DNA of 46,326 nt from Chloroflexota bacterium (GTDB taxonomy: Bacteria; Chloroflexota; Dormibacteria; Aeolococcales; Aeolococcaceae). Numbering within the stretch: position 1 is the stretch's first letter; the number at the start of each line of letters is the position of its first letter. Below are positions 3,353 through 41,944 of this stretch, piece after piece. The notes under the pieces were generated by a model. The model ran no database searches and was not told the DNA's origin. It was given only the letters and a program-made list of their open reading frames with translations. The DNA lies in contig VBJV01000045.1 in NCBI GenBank assembly GCA_005879785.1, positions 1-46,326 of the forward strand, in the 5' to 3' direction. Both the position numbers and the translations under genes were made by a program.

Positions 3353-3911
3353 GCGGAGCGGGGAACTCACTGCGCGTGAAGAGGGCATGCAGTGGAATGC
3401 CTGCTGCCTCGAGCGCTTCGCGCCCGCCCTCCTGGCGATCGACGACGCACACGGCCTCGACGACGACCGCGCCGGTCTCGGCGACGTGCTGGTTGGCGGC
3501 GAGGAATGTTCCGCCCGTGGTCAGCGTGTCATCGACGAGCAGGACGCGCATCCCGGCGCGCAGCGGCGGACCCTCGATTGCCCGTCCGGTGCCGTGCTCC
3601 TTCGCGGCCTTGCGCACGATGAACGCGCAGAGCGGCGCGTCGCCTTCGCCGCTCAACGCCGCAACCGCGGCTGCGATGGGGTCGGCGCCGAGGGTCAGCC
3701 CGCCCACCGCCGCGACCCTGAGCTCGCGGCAGCGCTGCAGCACCAGGCGTGCGACCAGGTGGAGGCCGCGGCCGTCGAGCGTCACCTGCTTGCCGTCGAT
3801 GTAGTAGTCGCTGCGCCTGCCGCTGGTGAGCACGAAGTCGCCGTGTGTGAAGGCGCGCGATGCGAGCAGCCCGTGCAGCTCCGCTCGCACCGCGGCGAGG
3901 TCGCCGCTCAC
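3324..3911 (-). CDS. pyrE: orotate phosphoribosyltransferase
   Basis: 195 aa. PRPP-binding loop VLLVDDTLTTGGT, N-terminal FVLTSGRRSDYYID, and typical PyrE length. Confidence 0.9.
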   Translation of the reverse strand: MSGDLAAVRAELHGLLASRAFTHGDFVLTSGRRSDYYIDGKQVTLDGRGLHLVARLVLQRCRELRVAAVGGLTLGADPIAAAVAALSGEGDAPLCAFIVRKAAKEHGTGRAIEGPPLRAGMRVLLVDDTLTTGGTFLAANQHVAETGAVVVEAVCVVDRQEGGREALEAAGIPLHALFTRSEFPAPHAAVSPSPG

Positions 3912-5404
3912 GATGCGGGTGCTTTCCAGCGCAGCACCGGGTGTCGGGCCGCGCCGACCTCATCGACGCGCTCCACCGGCGTGGCGTGTGGCGCCGCCTG
4001 CACGAACGAGAGGTCGCGCGCCGCCTCGTCGAGGATCGACGCGCAGATTGCGGCCAACTCGTCCAGGGTGCTCTTCGACTCTGTCTCGGTGGGCTCGAAC
4101 ATCAGCGCCTCGGGCACCGTCGTCGGGAAATACACGGTCGGCGCGTAGACGCCGAAATCGAGCAGGCGCTTGGCCACGTCCATGGCACGCAGCCCGGCCA
4201 CGGCGGAACCCTTGGTGGTGGCGACGAACTCGTGCAGGCAGGGCTGCGTGACCGCCATCGGCAGCAGCGGCGCGATGAGCGTCTGCAGGTACCTAGCGTT
4301 GAGCACTGCGTCACGTGCCACCTCGGGCAGCGTGTTGCCGTACGCGCGGATGTACGCGTATGCGCGCACCAGCATGCCGAAGTTGCCGTAGAAGGAGCGC
4401 ACCTTGCCGATGCTCTGCGGCCGCTCATCGTCGAAGTAGAAGCGGTCGCCGTCGCGTTCCACGGTTGGCGTGGGCAGGAACGCCGTGAGCCGCTCGGCGA
4501 CGCCGACCGGCCCGGCGCCCGGTCCGCCGCCGCCGTGCGGTGTCGAGAACGTTTTGTGCAGGTTGAGGTGCACGACGTCGAAGCCCATCTCACCGGGGCG
4601 CGCGACGCCGACCAGCGCGTTCAGGTTGGCGCCGTCGTAGTAGAGCAGCGCGCCCCGTTCATGGGCGAGGCGCGCGATCTCGAGAATGTCGGTCTCGAAG
4701 ACGCCGAGCGTGTTCGGGTTGGTGAGCATGATCGCGGCCACATGCTCGTCGAGGTGCTCGCGGAAGTCGGCGAGGTCGATGGTCCCTTCCGCGTTGCTCT
4801 GCACGGTGACCACATCGAGACCGCACGCGGCCGCCGAGGCCGGGTTGGTGCCGTGCGCCGAATCAGGGATGAGGACCTTGGTGCGGGCGAGGTCACCGCG
4901 GTCTGCGTGGTAGGCCTGGATCATGCGCAGCCCCGTCCACTCGCCGTGCGCGCCGGCGGCGGGCTGCAGTGACATCCGCGCCATCCCGGTGATGTCGGCG
5001 AGCATGCGCTCCAGCTCCCACATCAGGCGGAGGGCTCCCTGGACGTCGGCCTCGTCCTGGTACGGATGCAGGTTGGCGAAGCCGTCGAGCCACGCGATCT
5101 GCTCGTCGACGACCGGGTTGTACTTCATCGTGCACGACCCCAGCGGGTAGGCACCGTGGTGCAGGTTGTGGTTGCGCCGTGCCATGCGCCCGATGTGACG
5201 TGCCAGCACGGGTTCGGGAACCGCCGGCACCTCGGCGGGGCGAGCGCGCAGCATCGAACCCGGCAGCAGGGCCGCCAGGCCGTCACCGGGCACGCCGGCG
5301 GCGGGCAGCAGCGGACCCCGTTCGTAATCGGTGCTGAGCTCGAACACCAGCGGCTCTGCGCCGGCCCAGCGCGCCTCCACGGCCGGCGCCTCCGGTGCAC
5401 TCAT
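3908..5404 (-). CDS. gcvPB: glycine dehydrogenase (decarboxylating) subunit 2
   Basis: Has the PLP-lysine region NLHKTFSTPHGGGGPG and the SCTMKYNP motif. The start is taken at ATG 5404, which overlaps the gcvPA stop (ATGA). The track start at 5509 would add an Arg-rich extension. Confidence 0.9.
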   Translation of the reverse strand: MSAPEAPAVEARWAGAEPLVFELSTDYERGPLLPAAGVPGDGLAALLPGSMLRARPAEVPAVPEPVLARHIGRMARRNHNLHHGAYPLGSCTMKYNPVVDEQIAWLDGFANLHPYQDEADVQGALRLMWELERMLADITGMARMSLQPAAGAHGEWTGLRMIQAYHADRGDLARTKVLIPDSAHGTNPASAAACGLDVVTVQSNAEGTIDLADFREHLDEHVAAIMLTNPNTLGVFETDILEIARLAHERGALLYYDGANLNALVGVARPGEMGFDVVHLNLHKTFSTPHGGGGPGAGPVGVAERLTAFLPTPTVERDGDRFYFDDERPQSIGKVRSFYGNFGMLVRAYAYIRAYGNTLPEVARDAVLNARYLQTLIAPLLPMAVTQPCLHEFVATTKGSAVAGLRAMDVAKRLLDFGVYAPTVYFPTTVPEALMFEPTETESKSTLDELAAICASILDEAARDLSFVQAAPHATPVERVDEVGAARHPVLRWKAPAS

Positions 5405-6780
5405 GCCGTCGCCACCGGCACGCGCTGCTCGGCCGCGTCGAGCGCTACCCGTTTGGCCGCGGCCACGTAGCGTTCGATCGAGTCCGGCGAGGTCAGCTCG
5501 GTGCAGCACACCAGCACGTGGTCGTCGAGCGCGCTGTCGATGTCGCCGAGGGGAAGCCCGGCGATGATGTGGCTCTCGCGCAGCGCCCGCGCGAACTCAC
5601 GTCCGTCCACGGGCGTGCGCAGCACGAACTCCCAGAGGAACGGCGTGTCCGGGTAGGCGAGCGAGAACCCCTCGATCTCCGCGAGTCGCGCCGCGAGATG
5701 ATGGGCACGCAGCGCGCTCACCTCGGCGATGGTGCGCATCCCGCCCGCGCCCATGTACGCCATGTACACGGTGGCGGCGAGCGCGATGAGCGCGTGGTTG
5801 GTGCAGATGTTGGAGGTGGCGTGCTCGCGGCGGATGTGCTGCTCGCGCGCCTGCAACGTCAGGGTGTACGCGCGCCGTCCGGAGTGGTCGGTGGTCATGC
5901 CGGCGAGGCGGCCGGGAATACGTCGCAGCAACGCCTCGCGCACCGCCATGAAGCCCACGTGCGGTCCGCCGAACGAGGCTGGGATGCCGAGGGGCTGGCC
6001 GTCGCCGACGGCGACGTCGAACCCGGCGTCCCCCGGCGGCACGAGCGCCGCGCACGCATGCAGGTCGGTGCTGCAGATGGCGAGCGCTCCCCGGCTGTGC
6101 GCGATCTCCGCGATCTCCGCCAGCTCCTCGAGTGTGCCCAGGAAGGACGGATGTTGCACGAGCACCGCCGCGTGCTGGTCGTTGAGCGCGCCAGCCAGCG
6201 CTGCGGGAGACGTGCGCCCACCCTGCTCGGCGATCACGTCGATGTCGATGTGCCTCCCCTCGGCGAACGTGTGCAGGACGCGCAGCGTCTCCGGGTGCGC
6301 GCTGCTGGTCACGGCGATGCGCGTGCGCTTCGTGGTCTGAACGGCGAGCACCATCGCCTCGGCGGCAGCCGTCGCGCCGTCGTACATCGAGGCGTTGGCA
6401 ACGTCGAGACCGGTGAGCGCGCAGATCATGGACTGGAATTCGAAGATGCTCTGCAGCGTTCCCTGCGACGCCTCGGCCTGGTATGGCGTGTACGCGGTGT
6501 AGAACTCCGGGCGCGAGATGCTCGCGCGCACGATGGCGGGACTGAAACGGCGGTACACGCCGGCGCCGAGGAAGCTGCGATAGGTGCTCAGCGACCGGTT
6601 GCGGGCGGCAAGCCCTTCGAGCAGCACGACGAGGTCCTGCTCGCTGAGCGGCGGCGGCAGGTCGAGCGAGGGATTGCGCAGCGCGGCGGGGATGGCGGTG
6701 AACAGGTCCGCCGCCGTGCTCGCGCCGACGCGCGCCAGCATCGCCGTGCGCTCGGCGTCCGTGTTCGGCAGATAGGCCAC
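5401..6780 (-). CDS. gcvPA: glycine dehydrogenase (decarboxylating) subunit 1
   Basis: Homology begins at (V/M)AYLPNTDAERTAMLARVG, with TPYQAEASQGTLQ further in. GTG 6780 is preferred over ATG 6852, because the extra 24 codons cover an intergenic hairpin. Confidence 0.88.
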   Translation of the reverse strand: MAYLPNTDAERTAMLARVGASTAADLFTAIPAALRNPSLDLPPPLSEQDLVVLLEGLAARNRSLSTYRSFLGAGVYRRFSPAIVRASISRPEFYTAYTPYQAEASQGTLQSIFEFQSMICALTGLDVANASMYDGATAAAEAMVLAVQTTKRTRIAVTSSAHPETLRVLHTFAEGRHIDIDVIAEQGGRTSPAALAGALNDQHAAVLVQHPSFLGTLEELAEIAEIAHSRGALAICSTDLHACAALVPPGDAGFDVAVGDGQPLGIPASFGGPHVGFMAVREALLRRIPGRLAGMTTDHSGRRAYTLTLQAREQHIRREHATSNICTNHALIALAATVYMAYMGAGGMRTIAEVSALRAHHLAARLAEIEGFSLAYPDTPFLWEFVLRTPVDGREFARALRESHIIAGLPLGDIDSALDDHVLVCCTELTSPDSIERYVAAAKRVALDAAEQRVPVATA

Positions 6781-11781: not shown

Positions 11782-12255
11782 TTGGCGGTCGCCCTGGCCT
11801 CGGCCGCCGTGCTGCCGGCGGAGCACGGGGTGTCGGCCGGCGGCAGCCCGCCGGTCAAGCCGCGGCAGCATTTCACGGCCGGCATCAACGGGTCGCCTGG
11901 CGTCCCCAACCCGGCCACGATCCTGATGGCCTGCTTCGGGCCGATCCTGCCCGGGCAGACCGGCCATCCGTTCGGCGGCCAGACCATCGCTGTCCGCAAG
12001 GTCACCCGCAAGACGCCGGGCGCCGGCTACACCGGCACCCGGGCCACATCCATCGGCGGGTTCTTCGGCCTCCCGCCGCCGGCTGCGCCTCCTGCCTCCA
12101 CGTTCGTGAGCTTCATCCGCTACGGGCAGCAGGAGATTCCGACCAGCCTGGTGCTCCCGTGCGCCGGGCCGGGCCAGGTCACCTTCATCGGGTTGCCGCT
12201 GGACCCGTCCGAGCGCGACGTGGCCGTGCCGGTGGTCTTCGTCGGCCAGCCGTAG
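11782..12255 (+). CDS. hypothetical secreted protein
   Basis: The frame opens immediately after the preceding stop. It has a hydrophobic N-terminus (AVALASAAVLPA) and strong third-position bias. The TTG start is uncertain, and the 310-aa antisense ORF is judged a shadow. Confidence 0.5.
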   Translation: MAVALASAAVLPAEHGVSAGGSPPVKPRQHFTAGINGSPGVPNPATILMACFGPILPGQTGHPFGGQTIAVRKVTRKTPGAGYTGTRATSIGGFFGLPPPAAPPASTFVSFIRYGQQEIPTSLVLPCAGPGQVTFIGLPLDPSERDVAVPVVFVGQP

Positions 12256-15056: not shown

Positions 15057-16345
15057 GTCAGAGCCCCGTCCTCGTCCGCCAGCTCGAGCTCACCGCGGGC
15101 AGCACGCACGTCGCGGTGCCCCAGCGTCTCGGCGGACTGCAGTACCGCTCGTTGCAGCTGCTGGTGCGCCTGCACCGCCAGCCGCTGGGGATGATCAGCA
15201 CGGGCCTGCCCAGCGGCGGCCTCGACAGCGCGCAGCTCTCGGCGATGATCTGGGAGCACTTCGGCGACGACATCGCCGAGCATATGCGCGCGGACGGCAT
15301 GCCCCGTCCCTCCGGGCTGCCGCTGGACGGCCGCTTCGCCACCCGGCTGGCGCCCTGCCGGCACGAGGCGCGACGCGAGAGTGGCGGCCTTGCCGACGTG
15401 AGCGTGGTGGTGCCGACGTGCAACCGCACGCGCACGCTGATCCCCTGTCTGCAAACGATCCTCGCGTCGAGCACCCCGCCGCGCGAGGTGATCGTCGTCG
15501 AGAACCGGCCGGCATCGTCACAAACAGCGGCGGCGCTCGAGGCGGCGTTCCCCGGGGAGGCGCGCATCCGCTATCTCGAGGAGCCCAAGCCCGGCACGTC
15601 ACGCGCGCGCAACCGCGGCCTGGCGAACGCCCGCGGAGCGATCGTCGCCTTCGTCGACGACGACGTGCTGGTCGACCGTCACTGGCTCGCTCATCTCGCG
15701 CTGGCGTTCGTGGAGCAGCCGCTGGCGTCATGTGTGACCGGTCTCATCCTCCCGCTCGAGCTGGAGACACCGGCACAGCTCTGGCTGGAGCAGTACGGCG
15801 GGTTTGCCAAGGGCTATCGCCGTGTCGTGTTCGATCACACCCGCCGCACCGTGGACCCGCTCTTCCCGTACACCGCCGGCCGTTTCGGGTCCGGCGCGAA
15901 CATGGCGCTGCGCACGCGCGTGGCCCGCGACATCGGTGGGTTCGACGTCGCGCTCGGAGGTGGGACAAGCGCATCCGGCGGTGAGGACCTCGACGTCTTC
16001 CTGCGCCTGATGCTGCGCGGCCACACCCTGGTCTACGAGCCTTCGGCGCTGCTCTGGCACCGGCACCACACCTCGGTCCCGGAGCTGCGCTACCAGCTGC
16101 TGCATTACGGCAGGGGTCTCGGCGCGCTGCTCGCCAAACAGCTGGCCGGCACGCAGCGGCGTGACTTTCTCGGCCGCGTGCCGGTCGGGCTGCGCTACCT
16201 CCTCGATCCGGCCTCGCCGAAGAATGCCAGGCGGCAGAATGACTATCCGCGCCAGCTGGCGCTGCTGGAGCTGGTCGGCCTGCTCACCGGCCCGAGTGCC
16301 TACTTCGTCAGCCGGCGTGCGTCGCGAGCGCTGACGGCGCGATGA
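15053..16345 (+). CDS. family 2 glycosyltransferase
   Basis: SVVVPTCNRT, VIVVENRP, FVDDDVLV, and a later GGEDLD motif. ATG 15053 overlaps the upstream stop (ATGA). Confidence 0.85.
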   Translation: MSQSPVLVRQLELTAGSTHVAVPQRLGGLQYRSLQLLVRLHRQPLGMISTGLPSGGLDSAQLSAMIWEHFGDDIAEHMRADGMPRPSGLPLDGRFATRLAPCRHEARRESGGLADVSVVVPTCNRTRTLIPCLQTILASSTPPREVIVVENRPASSQTAAALEAAFPGEARIRYLEEPKPGTSRARNRGLANARGAIVAFVDDDVLVDRHWLAHLALAFVEQPLASCVTGLILPLELETPAQLWLEQYGGFAKGYRRVVFDHTRRTVDPLFPYTAGRFGSGANMALRTRVARDIGGFDVALGGGTSASGGEDLDVFLRLMLRGHTLVYEPSALLWHRHHTSVPELRYQLLHYGRGLGALLAKQLAGTQRRDFLGRVPVGLRYLLDPASPKNARRQNDYPRQLALLELVGLLTGPSAYFVSRRASRALTAR

Positions 16346-17662
16346 CCCTGCCCAGGCCGCTCAACACGCGCGTGCAGCAGGCTCTGGCCGAGCCGCTGTC
16401 GCGAAGCGCCTACAGCCTCATGGCCAACGTGGTGCTGACGTCGATTCTCGGCCTGGCCTTCTGGCTGGTGGCAGCCAGGCTGGCACCGCCGGTGGAGCTC
16501 GGACAGGACAGCGCGCTGATCGCGGTGCTGATGGTGCTGACCGTTGTGTGCCAGCTCGACCTGGGCACCGTGCTGACGCGCTTTCTCCCGGTGACGCGAC
16601 GGAGAAGCGCGCTCATGGTCGCCGCGGCGTATGCGATCAGCCTGGCGGCTTCGCTGCTCGTCGCGGTGGCCTTTGTGATCGTCGCGCCGGCGCGACGATC
16701 ACAAAGGCCACATGTCGTTGTGGGCGGTGTTCGCCCTGCAGGACTACGTGCTCACCGCGCTGCATCGTGCGCCGTGGGTTCCCGCCGAGAACGCCGGTTA
16801 CGGTCTGCTCAAGCTCGCCGCCCTGCCCGTGCTGATCGCCGCCGGTTTCGGCCATGCGGTCTTCGTGGCGTGGGTCGGCCCCGTCGTCGTGCTCGTGATC
16901 GTGGTCAACATCCTGCTCTTCCGGAGGGTCATCCCCGCACACGAGCGGTCGCCGCGCGAGTCCGCCGGCCACGCTCCACTGCGCGGCGCTCCCCTGCTGA
17001 GGTTTGTGATCCCCGACTACCTCGCCACCATCTTCAACCAGCTCACCACGTGGCTGCTGCCCGTTCTCGTCGTGGTCATGCTCGGCAGCCAGGCGAACGC
17101 GTACTTCTACATCGCCTTCACCGTCGTCACCGCGTTCAACCTCCTCTTCGTCAACGTGAGCACGTCGCTCATGGTGGAAGGAGTCATGGACGAGCGCAGG
17201 CTGGCCGCGCTGACCAGGCAGGTGGCGCGGCGTTTCCTGCTCTGGCTGGTGCTCGGCGGCGTCGTGCTCTACGCGGCCGCTCCGCTGATACTCGCTCCCT
17301 TCGGTCCCGAGTACGCCACCGGCGCCGGAGGCGTGCTGCGCCTGCTGGTCATTGCGGGCGGCTTCAGAGCGGTGATCTCATTGTTCACGGCGATCGCGCG
17401 TGTGCGGCGCAGGACCGGCTGGCTGCTCGCCGCGTATGGCGGGCTGGCCGTGATCCTCCTGCCGCTGGCGGTGGTCCTGGCCAGGCCGATGGGCCTCGAC
17501 GGCGTCGCCCTGGCCTGGTTGATCGCACACGCCACGGTGGCCGTCGCGGTGCTCGTACCGATGCTGCGGCTGCTGCGCACGCCCGGCGACGCGCCGCAGG
17601 CCTGGTCGTCGCAGCCCGTGCCGCTGCTCGCTGCCACGGCGGTCGCGGCCGGGGATCGCTGA
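16342..17662 (+). pseudogene. Wzx-like polysaccharide flippase (MOP superfamily), reading frame interrupted at 16666-16711
   Basis: The N-terminal 108 codons are in frame 1 (from ATG 16342, overlapping the upstream stop). The C-terminal 316 codons are in frame 2 (16712-17662). Both halves are multi-TM and family-like (FALQDYVLTALHRAPWVPAEN). The frame-1 continuation past 16712 is Arg-rich nonsense. Confidence 0.7.
16666..16711. repeat. 46-bp perfect palindrome without spacer (23+23 nt)
   Basis: gtggcctttgtgatcgtcgcgcc (16666-16688) is the exact reverse complement of ggcgcgacgatcacaaaggccac (16689-16711). The flanking bases 16665 (g) and 16712 (a) do not extend the pairing. Confidence 0.95.
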
Positions 17663-20010
17663 TGCGTCGCTGGAGCAGGCTGCAGAGCGACGGCGGCCGC
17701 ACGGCGCTGTACGGACTGGCCGCGCTGCTGTGCGTGCTCACGCCGCTGCTGCTGGCGACCGGTGCGCCACCCGTGCTGCGCGGACCGGTGACGCTGCTGT
17801 TCTTCTGCCTGGCGCCCGGGTGCGCTGTGGCTGCGGTCGTCCGGCTGCGCAGCCCGGCCGCGGAGATCGCGCTCGTCGTCGGGGCCAGCCTGGCGAGCGT
17901 GACGCTGCTCGCGCAGCTGATGCTCACGATCCATTTCCGCAACCTCGGGATTGCCACCGTGCTGCTGGCGGAGCTGAGCTTCGTGGCGCTCATGCGTCAT
18001 TTCTGGATCAGCAACGGGCGCAGCATGCCGCGCCGGGCCGCAATGCGGCGTGCGCGGGCCCGCGCCAACGCGCTCGTTGTCTACACGCTGCTGCTCACCG
18101 CGGCGATCGCTCCGTGGATGGGATCGGTGCGGCCCGCATGGGGTACCAGGCCCGCCCGCCGGCCGGCGGCGAGACCACGCGTGGTGCCACAGGCAAGCGA
18201 ACGCCGACGGGTGACACGCGCGCAGCTGGTGCACCCGCTGGCGCTGTGCGCCGCGTTCGTCGTGTGGCTGCTCGCGCTCCCGCAGGTGACCGTCGGCTCG
18301 TTCTCCGGTATCGGGCTCGTGGCCACGCTGCCGGTCACCTACTACGTCGCTCTCGGCCTGCTGCTGGCCGGCTTCGCTGTGGCCGTCATGAAGCTGCAGC
18401 CGCGGCAGTGGATCCTCGCCATGTACATCGCGCTGCTCGTTCTCGTGCTGCACGGGACCACCGCGGCGCTGTATCCGGAGCCGCGCTACACGTGGCTCTA
18501 CAAGCACCTTGGGGTCATCGACTACATCGCCGTGCACGGCACCAACAACGTCGCCGTCGACATCTATCAGAACTGGCCTGGATTCTTCGCCCTGAACGCA
18601 TGGTTCAGCGCAGTTGCGGGCTGGAAGCCCATCAACTACGCAGCCTGGGCACCGGTGTTCTTCGAGCTCGCCAACGTCGCCGCACTCGTGTTCGCCCTGC
18701 GGGGGCTGACCCAGCAGATGCGGCACATCTGGATTGCCTGCTGGATCTTCGTCTGGGCCAACTGGGTTGGACAGGATTACCTGTCCCCACAGGCCTTCGG
18801 TTTTTTCGAGGGCCTCATCGTCATCGGTGTCGTGCTGCGCTGCTCGCCGCGCAACGGGCGAACCGGCTCGTGGATCGGCGCGCGTATGGCGCGCTTGGTG
18901 ATGCGGCTGAAGCGGCGCGTGATCGAGGGACGCAGCGTCACCGAGTCGCGTCCGGCGGCGCCCCTGGTGCCGCTGGCGGCGCTGGCGGTGGGCGGCGTGT
19001 GCTTCCTGGCGACCGTGGTCAGCCATCAGCTCACGCCCTTCATGCTCTGCGCGCTGGTCGCCGCCCTGACCGCGCTGCGCTGGTGCCGTTCCGCGTGGAT
19101 ACCGCTGCAGATGACGCAGGCCGTGGTGGCCTGGCTGCTGCTGGCCTGGCCGTTCGTGTCGGCGCACTTCCAGCTGTTCAGTCCAGATCTGGCCACAACT
19201 GCCGCGCCGCCCGGTGCGTCGTACGGCGAGGCTCCAGGGGCTGCGCTGGTGCGCCTCAGCGAGAGCCTGGTCGTCGCACTGGTCGTTGCGCTGGCGGTGG
19301 TCGGTGCGGTGATGCGGCTCAGGGCCCGGCACTGGGACATCGCGGTGGCCGCTCTGGCGGTGGCTCCGTTCCTGGTGGGAGCCGCCCAGTCGTACGGCGG
19401 CGAGGCGATGCTTCGCGCCTATCTCTTCGCGCTGCCGTGGCTCTGCTTCCTCGCCGCAGCCGCGGTCCTGGCCGGTGCCGGCGCGCTCGCGCGTCTGCGC
19501 CTGCAGGCGCGACGGCGCATGGTCCTGGCGGGCGTGACGCTGGCCGTCGGCATCCCCTTCCTCTTCGCCTACTACGGCCACGAGTCGGTGAACTTCGTCA
19601 CTCCCGACGACGTTGCCGTGAACCAGTGGACGGGCGCGCACGCGCCGGCCGGTTCCATCGTCGGGTTCGTGGCCGCCAACTCGCCGGCGCGCCTCGACGC
19701 GCGCTATGCGGACATGAGCGTGGGCGACCCACCCACCACGCTCACGCTCGACAGGGCGCTGCTGGGCCATCGCTTCGGGCCTCGCGACCTCTCGCACGTC
19801 GAGCAGCTGCTGGCGGCGCCGCACGGCAGTGCCCGGTACCTGGTGCTGAGCCCCAGTCAAGCCAACTACCTGCGTTACTACGGCCTGGTCCCACCCGGGT
19901 GGACGGGCCAGCTCGAGGCGGCCCTGGCTGCCTCCCCGGACTTCAGGCCGGTGTTCGCCAGCGGACCGGCGAAGGTGTACCAGCTCGTCGCGGAGTTCCC
20001 CGATGGATGA
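17662..20010 (+). CDS. large polytopic membrane protein of the glycan operon (possible GT-C-type transferase/polymerase)
   Basis: 782 aa from ATG 17662 (TGATG overlap with the flippase stop). It has more than 12 hydrophobic spans and a soluble C-terminal domain of about 150 aa. I do not recognise the family; the function is inferred from context only. Confidence 0.65.
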   Translation: MRRWSRLQSDGGRTALYGLAALLCVLTPLLLATGAPPVLRGPVTLLFFCLAPGCAVAAVVRLRSPAAEIALVVGASLASVTLLAQLMLTIHFRNLGIATVLLAELSFVALMRHFWISNGRSMPRRAAMRRARARANALVVYTLLLTAAIAPWMGSVRPAWGTRPARRPAARPRVVPQASERRRVTRAQLVHPLALCAAFVVWLLALPQVTVGSFSGIGLVATLPVTYYVALGLLLAGFAVAVMKLQPRQWILAMYIALLVLVLHGTTAALYPEPRYTWLYKHLGVIDYIAVHGTNNVAVDIYQNWPGFFALNAWFSAVAGWKPINYAAWAPVFFELANVAALVFALRGLTQQMRHIWIACWIFVWANWVGQDYLSPQAFGFFEGLIVIGVVLRCSPRNGRTGSWIGARMARLVMRLKRRVIEGRSVTESRPAAPLVPLAALAVGGVCFLATVVSHQLTPFMLCALVAALTALRWCRSAWIPLQMTQAVVAWLLLAWPFVSAHFQLFSPDLATTAAPPGASYGEAPGAALVRLSESLVVALVVALAVVGAVMRLRARHWDIAVAALAVAPFLVGAAQSYGGEAMLRAYLFALPWLCFLAAAAVLAGAGALARLRLQARRRMVLAGVTLAVGIPFLFAYYGHESVNFVTPDDVAVNQWTGAHAPAGSIVGFVAANSPARLDARYADMSVGDPPTTLTLDRALLGHRFGPRDLSHVEQLLAAPHGSARYLVLSPSQANYLRYYGLVPPGWTGQLEAALAASPDFRPVFASGPAKVYQLVAEFPDG

Positions 20011-39175: not shown

Positions 39176-39529
39176 ATGCCAGCTCCAACGCTACGCCGTG
39201 GCTCGATTCCCGCTCCCGTGCGAGCGACCCTCTTCGGCGCGTTCCTCGGGCTGGTGACGTTCGCCGTAACCGCGTGGATGTGGCGGTCCGGGGCCACGCA
39301 GGCGGCGGCGCTCACCGCTGAAGCAGCGCTGCTGATCGCGCTCGGATGCATCGCCTTGATAGCCGTACTGGACGGCCCGGCCCGGCTGCGCCGGGCCAGG
39401 GTTCCCATCAACCGTGCGGTGCCGCAAGCCTGGTGGCCGCGGGAGACCGACTCGCTGTCGCTGCTCGCGGCCTGCGCCGGCGCGCCCCTCGTCATCGGCG
39501 CCGGCGCCGCGGTGCTGCTCTTCCGCTGA
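39176..39529 (+). CDS. hypothetical membrane protein
   Basis: 117 aa with three hydrophobic spans and acceptable third-position bias. The start is uncertain because a structured leader for the divergent gene abuts it. Confidence 0.45.
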   Translation: MPAPTLRRGSIPAPVRATLFGAFLGLVTFAVTAWMWRSGATQAAALTAEAALLIALGCIALIAVLDGPARLRRARVPINRAVPQAWWPRETDSLSLLAACAGAPLVIGAGAAVLLFR

Positions 39530-39554
39530 GCACCAACCAGGCGAGCCCGACCGG

Positions 39555-40307
39555 CTAACCGGCCCCCGCAGCCACCAGCGTCCGCACCGCGCCGACGGCT
39601 ACGTCGATGGCCGCTTGCAGGGGCAGCTGCTGAGGATCGGGCATCGGTTCGGCCCCTGGGCCGGAGCGATCGATGACGGCCAGCACCGCGCCGGCACGCA
39701 CGCCGCGCACGGACGCAACGGTGAGCACGGTTGCGCACTCCATCTCGACAGCGATACAGCCGGCGCGCACCCACGCGTCCCAGCGTGCATGCAGCTCTGC
39801 GGCGACGGGCATGCGCTCCATGTCGCGCTGCCCGAAGAAGGAATCGGTGGACAGGACGATGCCGGTGCGGTGCTTGGTGCCGAGACGAATCGCGCAGTCG
39901 CGCAGCGCGTTGACGACGTCCAGGTCGGCGATCGCGGGGTAGTCGGCGGGCACGTAACGGTGCGAGGTACCGTCGTCGCGCACCGCGCCGTGCACCACGA
40001 CGGCATCACCGGATTGCATGCTGTCCTGCAGGGCGCCGCAGGTGCCGATGCGGATCATCGTGTGCACGTCGAGGCTGGCCAGCTCCTCCATGCAGATCGC
40101 CGCCGACGGTCCGCCGATGCCGGTGGACACCACGCAGACGGGCGCCCCGTCCACACTGCCGGCATAGGTCGTGAACTCGCGGTTGCTGCGCACGTGACGC
40201 GCGCCGTCGAGGGAGCGCGCGATCAGCTCGCAGCGTCCCGGGTCACCCGGCAGCAGCGCGTACCCGCCCACCTCGCCGTCGTCGAGCTGCAGGTGGTAGC
40301 GGCGCAC
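39555..40307 (-). CDS. nucleoside phosphorylase (PNP/UDP family 1, uridine/purine type)
   Basis: LLPGDPGR, STGIGGPSAAICMEEL, RIGTCG, and VEMECA motifs. GTG start. Confidence 0.8.
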   Translation of the reverse strand: MRRYHLQLDDGEVGGYALLPGDPGRCELIARSLDGARHVRSNREFTTYAGSVDGAPVCVVSTGIGGPSAAICMEELASLDVHTMIRIGTCGALQDSMQSGDAVVVHGAVRDDGTSHRYVPADYPAIADLDVVNALRDCAIRLGTKHRTGIVLSTDSFFGQRDMERMPVAAELHARWDAWVRAGCIAVEMECATVLTVASVRGVRAGAVLAVIDRSGPGAEPMPDPQQLPLQAAIDVAVGAVRTLVAAGAG

Positions 40308-40324
40308 GGATCGTGGTCAGCGCT

Positions 40325-41419
40325 TCACGCGGCCAGGCGTGCGATGGCCCAGCCGGCGGCTTCGCGCACCGCGGCATCGGGGTCGCTGGCGCTCGCGCGG
40401 CGCAACGCCGTCAGCGCGCCGCGGTCACCCGAGTTGCCCAGCGCGACCGCGCAGTTGCGCGCCAGCCCGGCTCGCCCGGCGCGCCACACCGCGGTGCCGC
40501 GAAAGCGCTCGGCGAACTCGTCCTCGCTGAGCGACAGGCACTCGATCAGGTCTGGAAACGGCACGGGCCCTCGAGCGGTCGACGCGTCGCCGGCGGCGAG
40601 CGGCGCCGGGGCCAGGCGCTCGTTGATCGGGCACGCCTCCTGGCAGAGGTCGCAGCCGAACGCCCACGTGCCCATGAGCGGGCGCAGCGGCTTCGGAATC
40701 GGACCGCGGTGCTCGATGGTGAGGTACGCGATGCATCGACGCGCGTCGATGACTCCGGGTGCGACGATCGCGCCGGTCGGGCACGCGGGCAGGCATGCGC
40801 GACACTGCCCGCAGCCGCGTCGTGATGGCGCGTCCGCGGGCAGCTGCACCGACAGCAGCATCTCGGCGAGCAGCACGTACGAGCCGGCCTCCCGTGTGAT
40901 CAGCGACGCGTGCTTCCCCGCGAAGCCGATGCCGGCACGCTCCGCGATGGCGCGGTCCATCGCCCAGCCGTGGTCGACGAAGCGCTTGGCGCGCACATCG
41001 GGCACGCGCGCCGACAGCCAGTCCGCGAGGGCGTCGCAGCGTCCGGCCAGCACCGTGTGGTAGTCGGCGGGACGCCCTCCTGAGTCCAGGCACGCGTACG
41101 CCGAGAAGCGGCCGCGCGGCCGGCCCGGCTGTGGCTCGGCGCGATGCCCTGGAGCCGCGCCCGGCGCGCGCGCCGGGCGGTACGGCCAGGCCAGGGCCAC
41201 GATCGAGCGGGCCCACGGGTACCGCGCACGAAAATCGGTGGACGCCTTCACGCGCTCCGCCGTGTACCAGCCCATGCCGTCCATGCGTCCCTCGCCGATG
41301 GCCGCGAGCCCGCGCCGGCGGGCCTCGGTGAATGGACGCATCGAGGTGACCCCGGCCGCGGCGAAGCCCAGGCGCAGCGCCTCGCTGCGCAGCTCCTCCT
41401 TGAGCGCTGCCCAATCCAT
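40325..41419 (-). CDS. queG: epoxyqueuosine reductase
   Basis: From ATG 41419 (MDWAALKEEL): two 4Fe-4S motifs (CGQCRACLPACPTGAI and CDLCQEACPIN), the cobalamin-domain region, and C-terminal HEAT-like repeats. Confidence 0.85.
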   Translation of the reverse strand: MDWAALKEELRSEALRLGFAAAGVTSMRPFTEARRRGLAAIGEGRMDGMGWYTAERVKASTDFRARYPWARSIVALAWPYRPARAPGAAPGHRAEPQPGRPRGRFSAYACLDSGGRPADYHTVLAGRCDALADWLSARVPDVRAKRFVDHGWAMDRAIAERAGIGFAGKHASLITREAGSYVLLAEMLLSVQLPADAPSRRGCGQCRACLPACPTGAIVAPGVIDARRCIAYLTIEHRGPIPKPLRPLMGTWAFGCDLCQEACPINERLAPAPLAAGDASTARGPVPFPDLIECLSLSEDEFAERFRGTAVWRAGRAGLARNCAVALGNSGDRGALTALRRASASDPDAAVREAAGWAIARLAA

Positions 41420-41455
41420 GGCTTCGAGGATGCCACGCGGACTACGATCGAGCGC

Positions 41456-41944
41456 ATGAACGCGCGACGCGGCCGCATCGTGGTGGGCAGCGACATGCGC
41501 CATGAGACCGCGGACGCCGTGGCGCAGCACCTCGAGGACGCCGGCTACGACGTGGTGCGCTGCGGCGCGGTCGGCGGGCCGGACACGCCGTGGCCGGAGG
41601 TGGCCGAGCAGGTGGGCAGGCTGGTGGCGCAGCGCGCCGTGGACAGCGGCGTGGTCTGCTGCTGGACCGGCACCGGCGTGAGCATCGCGGCGAACAAGGT
41701 GCCGGGGGTCCGCGCTGCGCTGTGTGGCGACGCCGACACCGCGCGCGGCGCACGCAAGTGGAACGACGCCAACGTGCTGGCGATCGGCCTGATGAGCACG
41801 GAGGCCGGCGATGCCAAAGCGATCGTGGACGCCTGGCTCGAGACCGCGGAGGTCGACCCCACCGAAGCCGGCAACATCGCGCGGGTCGCGGAGTTGGAGC
41901 AGCGCTACGGCGAGCGCCGGGAGGCAGCCGGACCGGGCCGATAG
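41456..41944 (+). CDS. RpiB/LacA/LacB family sugar-phosphate isomerase (divergent)
   Basis: RIVVGSD, TGTGVSIAANKVPGVRAA, and NDANVLAIG motifs. The GSDHAG-type motif is altered (GSDMRHE), so the substrate is uncertain. Confidence 0.7.
   Translation: MNARRGRIVVGSDMRHETADAVAQHLEDAGYDVVRCGAVGGPDTPWPEVAEQVGRLVAQRAVDSGVVCCWTGTGVSIAANKVPGVRAALCGDADTARGARKWNDANVLAIGLMSTEAGDAKAIVDAWLETAEVDPTEAGNIARVAELEQRYGERREAAGPGR

Follow-up and report, generated by a model that had tools for sequence, protein, structure and literature searches.

Template switching at inverted repeats makes the repeats more perfect (PMC7202029), and short-range switches of the 3-2-1-4 class "generate single inverted repeats" (PMC7954356). 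These are the closest described systems for a 46-bp perfect palindrome that lies within a putative polysaccharide flippase gene of a Chloroflexota bacterium, in contig VBJV01000045.1. The whole stretch of DNA analyzed here, referred to as the window, is 46,326 nt long and has 70% G+C. The interpretation favored, with moderate confidence, is that the palindrome is the scar of fold-back (template-switch) DNA synthesis and not an inserted element. The mechanism is of a known class, and the case is atypical for its 10-bp seed, for arms that are made de novo, and for a coupled deletion.

Quasipalindrome (QP) template-switch mutations were described by Ripley in 1982 and are represented in Escherichia coli by the thyA hotspot and by the lacZ QP reporters of the Lovett laboratory (PMC7202029). 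The window locus resembles them in that the new bases are templated by the adjacent reverse complement, an inverted repeat has been made perfect and longer, the organism is bacterial, and the pivot is capable of forming a hairpin. Classical events, however, correct an existing imperfect palindrome by a few bases and cause no loss of flanking sequence. Here, the seed was a perfect palindrome of 10 bp whose flanks had no inverted symmetry, about 18 bp per arm were made de novo, and 61 nt were deleted at the return. Templating by the opposite arm is therefore found, whereas an imperfect repeat made more perfect is not.

In the four-point model (Loytynoja & Goldman 2017; Walker et al. 2021, PMC7954356), to which the 3-2-1-4 class belongs, a derived sequence is accounted for by three colinear fragments, with the reverse complement of nearby ancestral sequence in the middle. 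The allele of the window, hereafter allele C, resolves fully into such fragments:

L to 1: native sequence up to 16693
2 to 3: reverse complement of 16683-16667
4 to R: native sequence from 16711

A single perfect inverted repeat is produced, as the model describes, and the ancestor is known from near-identical sequences, the ancestral state being given by seven intact alleles and by homologs. The model was described from great-ape/human comparisons and its events are usually roughly length-neutral, whereas the window belongs to an uncultured soil bacterium, its point 4 lies 61 nt past point 1 (a deletion), and its arms abut without a spacer.

Snap-back templated insertions also form at repaired double-strand breaks, by polymerase-theta-type end joining in eukaryotes and by Ku-LigD end joining in mycobacteria. 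They share with the window locus a deletion, a short inverted templated insertion, and minimal microhomology; at this locus, the product of such a repair would not be distinguishable by sequence from that of a replicative switch. Two technical artefacts belong to the same comparison, namely PDSM chimeras (PMC10908179) and the join errors of the assembler IDBA-UD (PMC7111523). The likeness consists in the pivot on a natural palindrome, in the inverted complement of the same molecule, and in the apparent proximity of the junction to a contig end in the assembly of another sample (contig L005). Such artefacts are of low frequency, have one junction, and fall at scattered sites, whereas the structure in the window has two junctions, occurs at this site only, and co-segregates with a strain single-nucleotide polymorphism (SNP).

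The Palindrome and Its Ancestral State

Positions 16666-16688 (GTGGCCTTTGTGATCGTCGCGCC) and 16689-16711 are 100% reverse-complementary with a spacer of 0 nt, and the perfect loop-free 46-bp palindrome reported in the initial annotation was confirmed. The frame relationships described there also hold: position 16666 lies on a codon boundary, 108 codons after ATG 16342, and ATG 16712 is in frame +1. The second-longest loop-free palindrome arm in the window measures 11 nt, against 23 nt at this site, and the number of loop-free palindromes drops about 3-fold with each extra arm base. For both reasons, the 23-nt arm is far outside chance. From base composition (probability of a match about 0.29 at 70% GC), the number of palindromes with 23-nt arms would be expected to be about 2e-8 per window.

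The ancestral state is provided by seven contigs with an intact allele (L001, L003, L004, L008 = L012, L010, and L011), which come from JGI, ENA/MEGAHIT, Logan, and a scaffold-type pipeline. On the left as far as 16693 and on the right from 16711 onward, they align gaplessly to the window at 99.5-99.95% identity, and over the 6-10 kb compared no further indel separates them from it. Between these two positions the intact allele has 61 nt and the window 17 nt. The locus is thus composed of the following parts:

16342..16693, plus strand: codons 1-117 of the flippase gene (N-terminal part), native and colinear to the switch point with the intact alleles (protein alignment)
16666..16688, plus strand: left arm, native coding sequence for V109-P116 at the end of helix 86-118, template of the inverted copy
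16684..16693, no strand: pivot, a native 10-bp all-G+C palindrome GCGCC/GGCGC (GCGCCGGCGC), codons GCG-CCG-GCG-C, Ala-Pro-Ala
16694..16710, plus strand: 17-nt patch GACGATCACAAAGGCCA, the sole new sequence, reverse complement of 16667-16683
16711..16711, plus strand: return junction, a C common to the inverted copy and to the downstream native sequence (1-nt microhomology), where the second high-scoring segment pair begins
16712..17662, plus strand: last 316 codons of the flippase gene, beginning at the codon of Met139 inside the intact protein and shifted to frame +1 with respect to the N-terminal part
16342..20010, plus strand: stop-free read-through frame of 1,222 codons (open reading frame listing and gene layout)

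The N-terminal part aligns without gaps at 99.6-100% identity to L001-L004, L008, L010, and L011, and the alignment ends exactly at 16693. Since the intact alleles are colinear with the window to this position, the left arm is native, and so are the first five bases of the right one. Indeed, the left arm sequence is identical in 7/7 intact alleles, and F111, V112, A115, and P116 of its product VAFVIVAP are invariant or nearly so among 60 homologs. The pivot GCGCC/GGCGC is likewise already present in the intact alleles; the same 10-mer occurs in 4 copies in the window and is extended at 16684..16693 only. All of the new bases (17/17) are complementary to the left arm. The patch stands in place of 61 native nt (L004 1986-2046; L001 4108-4168), with a net change of -44 nt. 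Read across both sides, the junction of allele C is ...AAAGGCCAC/ATGTCGTTG..., and the reverse complement of the left flank, into which a hairpin would continue past the pivot, reads ...GGCCACCGCGACGAG... At the sequence level, these alignments establish the anatomy of the locus, the state from which it derives, and the copying of the new bases from a template.

The net loss of 44 nt shifts the reading frame, so that in the window contig the flippase gene is a pseudogene. Past the shift, a ribosome in the N-terminal frame would read the whole C-terminal part in the wrong frame and then pass, in the correct one, into the gene of a 782-aa membrane protein (17662-20010). The closest homolog, P0001 of 454 aa (equally P0122, P0124, and P0125), is about 99% identical to the window on either side of the junction. 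The intact protein reads ...LLVAVAFVIVAP-ALWSSLAFLGRDMWLAAGFCVL-MSLWAVFALQDY..., with VAFVIVAP-ALWSSLAFLGRDMWLAAGFCVL-MSLWAV around the junction in the seven intact alleles. The 22 residues ALWSSLAFLGRDMWLAAGFCVL that follow VAFVIVAP are missing from the window and present in all homologs aligned. In the predicted structure, the lost stretch, residues 117-138, takes in the last part of the transmembrane helix 86-118, a short connecting helix (120-127), and ten residues at the start of the next helix (129-154).

In the initial annotation, removal of the 46 nt was seen as restoring a protein of 424 aa, and 20-30 residues missing at the junction were named as the mark of a replacement scar rather than a clean insertion. 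The arithmetic of the excision is right, since it yields a 424-aa open reading frame (ORF); biologically the proposal fails, as the product would be without 30 conserved residues and the intact orthologous alleles encode 454 aa. With a native left arm and 22 conserved residues missing, the palindrome is a replacement scar. Excising it is not the correct repair, and the deposited gene model is wrong for the flippase of this organism: the protein deposited at NCBI for the locus is the 316-aa C-terminal ORF only (P0121; NCBI, NCBI nr). It lies on a single contig of 46,326 nt, and the window is therefore a deposited contig in its entirety. Neither this 316-aa product nor the 1,222-aa read-through product gave a contig record in exact look-ups. 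The motif AAAGG sits 4 nt upstream of ATG 16712, within the inverted copy (16703-16711), and it could be speculated that it acts as a weak ribosome-binding site for this orphan ORF.

The same comparison bears on a palindromic mobile element or hairpin footprint inserted in the gene, which was the first origin proposed for the palindrome. The argument for it is arithmetical, in that a length of 3n+1 allows excision to restore the frame. However, the left arm and 5 nt of the right arm belong to the gene, so the palindrome is not wholly extra; all intact alleles have the left arm, which is conserved in remote homologs as well. In addition, 61 nt of the gene are gone and the gene is not merely interrupted, and no target-site duplication is present. 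Further copies of the 23-mer, which would have indicated a repeat family, were not found: the window holds no second copy of either arm with up to 6 mismatches allowed, and the 28-mer formed by the left arm and GGCGC occurs at a single locus, the flippase gene, in the metagenome contig collection searched. The mobile element was rejected on comparison with the intact alleles, and its probability is practically negligible. The second proposal, a fold-back templated scar, is the one that the sequence bears out, with a native left arm encoding VAFVIVAP and a right arm that is its inverted copy.

A functional hairpin, serving as terminator, attenuator, or phase-variation switch of a polysaccharide operon, can be considered on the basis of stability. 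As single-stranded DNA, the 46-bp palindrome folds into a stem of 21 bp closed by a 4-nt loop, with an energy of -29.3 kcal/mol (z = -8.1 versus shuffles), whereas the intact allele gives nothing unusual in the same folding test (z = +0.7). A hairpin as stable as -29 kcal/mol inside an operon of translationally coupled genes would suit such a role. Nevertheless, 7/9 full-length alleles and all homologs are without the palindrome, which on the present data is nowhere conserved beyond this strain lineage. The 61 nt once lost cannot be regained, which leaves no way of switching back, and in a terminator/promoter scan no T-run follows the stem, the terminator-like matches being small neighboring stems. 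A regulatory role is thus very improbable.

A Second Palindromic Allele

A further palindromic allele, allele B, is carried by contig L002 (ENA ERZ28573530, CRIT18-1_SAMN08902887 scaffold_40156):

L002 2497-2538 (= L019 1454-1495): perfect 42-bp palindrome of allele B, on the same pivot as in the window
Return junction of allele B: ...AAAGGCC/GTCGTTAGCG...

In this allele a 16-nt inverted patch, GACGATCACAAAGGCC, replaces 7 nt (TCTGGTC), after which the native sequence resumes. The change is +9 nt and in frame, and the product has 457 aa (+3 aa), with LWS replaced by RRSQRP at a helix-helix turn. L002 is also the nearest relative of the window: the 2,538 nt upstream are free of mismatches, and the 3,582 nt downstream have 2. 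The SNP 14806A is private to these two contigs, G being found in eight others. No marker apart from 14806 distinguishes the haplotype with the palindrome from that of L004, the closest to it among the intact ones. L011 is a product of the scaffold-type pipeline that also gave L002, and it has 14806G and an intact allele. A third contig, L005, assembled with MEGAHIT, contains 22 nt of the inverted copy before it ends, in the version of the window and not in that of L002. The consensus sequences of L005 and the window differ at 4 sites and share the 22-nt length of the extension.

At L002 2545, 7 nt past the return junction, there is a private G>A change (TTG to TTA) that occurs in no other contig and has no nearby template. 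TTA would be expected to be a rare codon at this G+C content. Error-prone synthesis following the switch may have caused the change, as may a mistake at what was once the end of a contig.

Allele C would have arisen either from allele B or independently from the intact allele. In the former case, a second fold-back on the perfect 42-bp palindrome would have added AC (the complement of GT at 16666-16667), with rejoining 55 nt downstream. Two simpler routes from B to C were rejected, namely slippage between two GTCGTT direct repeats, which leaves ACAT unexplained, and simple deletion, from which the sequence is not derivable.

The step from B to C may also have been taken by an assembler. Allele B would then be real in the strain and the allele of the window a misassembly of it, with AC added and 55 nt dropped: a true 42-bp palindrome breaks de Bruijn graphs at k < 42, and the ends would have been wrongly rejoined. 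The identity of haplotype between the window and L002 is in agreement with this, and AC is what a graph walk into the reverse complement of its own left flank adds. Assemblers are known to split or misjoin at exact palindromes under imperfect coverage (PMC9528984), and join errors of IDBA-UD are documented (PMC7111523). Furthermore, allele B is in frame, alters only a loop, and is more plausible as a surviving natural allele. Against these points, no simple k-mer rule yields an overshoot of 1-2 nt, and L005, the product of another assembler, has A after the 42-bp palindrome, as in allele C, and not G, as in allele B. On the whole, such a misassembly is considered rather improbable.

Origin of the Palindrome

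In the fold-back mechanism proposed here, DNA synthesis, at a replication fork or during break repair, would reach the native 10-bp palindrome GCGCC/GGCGC in the flippase gene. The growing 3′ end, GCGCCGGCGC, would re-anneal to the opposite strand, where the palindrome pairs equally well. Since a loop-less intramolecular hairpin of 5 bp is sterically implausible, the switch would be an inter-strand one, with 10 G:C base pairs formed with the identical sequence on the sister strand. A stretch of 17-18 nt would then be copied backwards, giving the reverse complement of the codons just made (16667-16683), before synthesis returned to the correct template 61 nt further on with a 1-nt microhomology. 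As a result, the 5+5 palindrome would become 23+23, about 20 codons would be deleted, and the frame would be shifted. The event would have taken place in cells, in the strain lineage marked by 14806A.

An origin in vivo is favored, first of all, by the second palindromic allele, which has another return point and comes from an independent assembly (L002), and by the 22 nt of the same inverted copy in the MEGAHIT contig L005. A control set of contigs from four assemblers, 173 kb in total and including about 20 true contig ends, contains no other palindrome arm of at least 12 nt and no other contig end with a hairpin tip. By comparison, this site, one of about 150 small palindromes per 46 kb, is extended in 3 of about 10 assemblies. 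Both palindromic alleles that are internal to a contig go with 14806A and not with the pipeline. Site specificity and linkage to 14806A thus lend indirect support to a heritable event in vivo, which is preferred.

The principal alternative is that both palindromic alleles, B and C, are artefacts in which a library chimera was combined with a scaffold-join error. A single-stranded end finishing in GCGCCGGCGC would pair with a sister molecule and be filled in, acquiring a short inverted tail. At low coverage this tail would persist as a hairpin tip at a contig end, and a scaffolder would join the tip without Ns to the next contig, whereby 61 nt would be lost in the window and 7 nt in L002. Both contigs were presumably assembled with IDBA-UD, which is a guess from their record names. 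PDSM chimeric reads are known to pivot on natural palindromes during library preparation (PMC10908179), and local errors in IDBA-UD assemblies number about one per 87 kb, most of them falling where scaffolds were joined (PMC7111523). L005, from an assembler without scaffolding, ends as just such a hairpin tip, 1 nt short of the return junction of the window, as would be expected of a contig or fragment end, and L009 starts 2 nt before the same point. The private G>A of L002 is of a kind frequent at contig ends, and the palindrome is absent from 5/5 intact full-length alleles from other assemblers.

Several observations are difficult to reconcile with this artefact. It would have to be specific to one site, as the other small palindromes of the 173 kb are unextended. 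The alleles follow the haplotype and not the pipeline, L011 being intact although it comes from the same one. Scaffold gaps in that pipeline appear as N runs: L011 holds them at 3859-4090 (232 nt), 6201-6245 (45 nt), and 11799-11949 (151 nt), from which it follows that positive gaps are written as Ns. One of these runs cuts the call of the 782-aa gene to 582 aa. The window and L005 show the same 22-nt extension despite their 4 consensus differences. A hairpin made only in the assembly graph requires a palindrome of at least about k-1 (PMC9528984). Since the native palindrome measures 10 bp, reads with the inverted copy must exist. In addition, the extensions of 22-23 nt in the window and L005 would differ from the length of about k/2 expected of a graph-made hairpin, at the default k values of MEGAHIT and IDBA-UD. 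An artefact behind both alleles is considered unlikely, if well short of negligible.

Fold-back synthesis in cells has to be weighed against further points that speak against it. The extension of L002, 20-21 nt, would fit an even k of 40. The complete allele C is found in one contig only, and its two junctions are known at the level of consensus sequence. Palindromic alleles internal to a contig occur only in scaffold-type assemblies, and L005 carries 14806G, not A. The microhomology at the return is just 1 nt. The 1,222-codon read-through fusion should be deleterious and is unlikely as a high-frequency natural allele. Finally, no quasipalindrome beyond 10 bp existed before the event, as the unremarkable folding of the intact allele indicates (z = +0.7), and the site is not a classical hotspot. 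Taken together with the evidence in favor, a palindromic allele probably does exist in this population, and the balance tilts slightly toward the exact allele C of the window being real as well.

A natural series in a wild, uncultured soil population can be proposed tentatively, although it is doubtful. It would consist of the intact allele A, the in-frame allele B with a 42-bp palindrome, and the pseudogene allele C with a 46-bp palindrome, so that a 10-bp seed would have given a long palindrome and then a secondary rearrangement. On such a reading, pressure from phages or predators, for example, may have favored a changed or lost surface-polysaccharide flippase. It is this putative series of alleles in the wild that gives the locus most of its interest. 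If real, ancestral, intermediate-like, and derived alleles coexist in the same soil population, and the locus offers a natural example of a short palindrome of Ala-Pro-Ala codons that seeds a long perfect palindrome and inactivates a gene in one step. It would then inform on complex mutations and on palindrome instability in high-G+C bacteria and provide a test case for template-switch detectors on metagenomes. If an artefact, the locus is a well-characterized local misassembly of the hairpin type, which has entered public protein databases as a truncated 316-aa "protein".

Contigs from three other assemblies break within 3 nt of the edges of the palindrome. L006 (Logan) ends at 16663 and L005 at 16710, while L009, a 93% relative from JGI, begins at the position equivalent to 16710 with an intact-type TCATG. 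The protein collection has no entry for the shortened N-terminal products that L005 and L006 would encode. Graph rules with k = 31, 39, and 141 were tried for these three contig ends and reproduced none of them; the trials included the palindrome folding of MEGAHIT.

Tight clusters of substitutions between strains (versus L001/L010/L011/L003) are found at 17611-17612, 18874-18895, 18951-18963, and 19479-19494, among them a GC>CG dinucleotide swap and a group of 7 changes in 22 nt. In a simple test, local reverse-complement templating explains none of these, and of five SNP clusters examined besides the palindrome site, 0 fitted. Independent signs of frequent template switching thus appear to be absent from this population.

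The Flippase Gene and Its Neighbors

The database search returned 188 homologs, many of them labelled "O-antigen/teichoic acid export membrane protein" by JGI. In the Pfam/NCBIfam search, the only match was that of the N-terminal part to Polysacc_synt (PF01943), with 19.4 bits versus a gathering cut-off of 28.2; neither the intact protein nor 12 homologs gave a Pfam match, and a profile search against PDB sequences returned nothing relevant. The AlphaFold2 model of the intact allele (pLDDT 91, pTM 0.89) has a MOP transporter fold. Its best Foldseek match is WzxE 9g9n_A, a lipid III flippase, with template modeling (TM) scores of 0.73/0.80, followed by MATE and MurJ. On this model, the gene is predicted to encode a Wzx-like member of the MOP superfamily. 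The label of flippase given in the initial annotation is thus supported by the predicted fold, with WzxE as the best match, and not by Pfam, whose threshold is not reached. The likeness to flippases of the WzxE/MurJ type extends to the neighborhood, which includes genes for GT2 glycosyltransferases and a polysaccharide deacetylase, whereas identity to solved structures is 12-16% and the score lies below the gathering score of PF01943.

The closest named relatives, at 42-46% identity, are from metagenome-assembled genomes (MAGs) of Thermoleophilaceae and Solirubrobacterales. A scan of genome contigs found distant relatives only, at 29-46% identity, in Thermoleophilaceae, Solirubrobacterales MAGs, and Streptomyces. 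Upstream of the flippase gene lie, in this order, genes for a GT2, a polysaccharide deacetylase, and another GT2, and downstream of it that for a 782-aa membrane protein; stop codons overlap with start codons along the cluster. The last of these genes (17662-20010, plus strand) overlaps the flippase gene by TGATG, is translationally coupled to it, and is conserved in all related contigs. Its product has no Pfam match at E <= 0.1 and might, as a guess, be a polymerase or ligase. An exact look-up of this 782-aa product returned the L002 scaffold as the sole contig record.

The second-ranked loop-free palindrome of the window, CGCCCGGCGCGCGCGCCGGGCG at 41158-41179, has arms of 11 nt and lies near the start of the ORF 41144-41944, after the ORF 39414-41063. 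It may be an ordinary intergenic G+C-rich hairpin.

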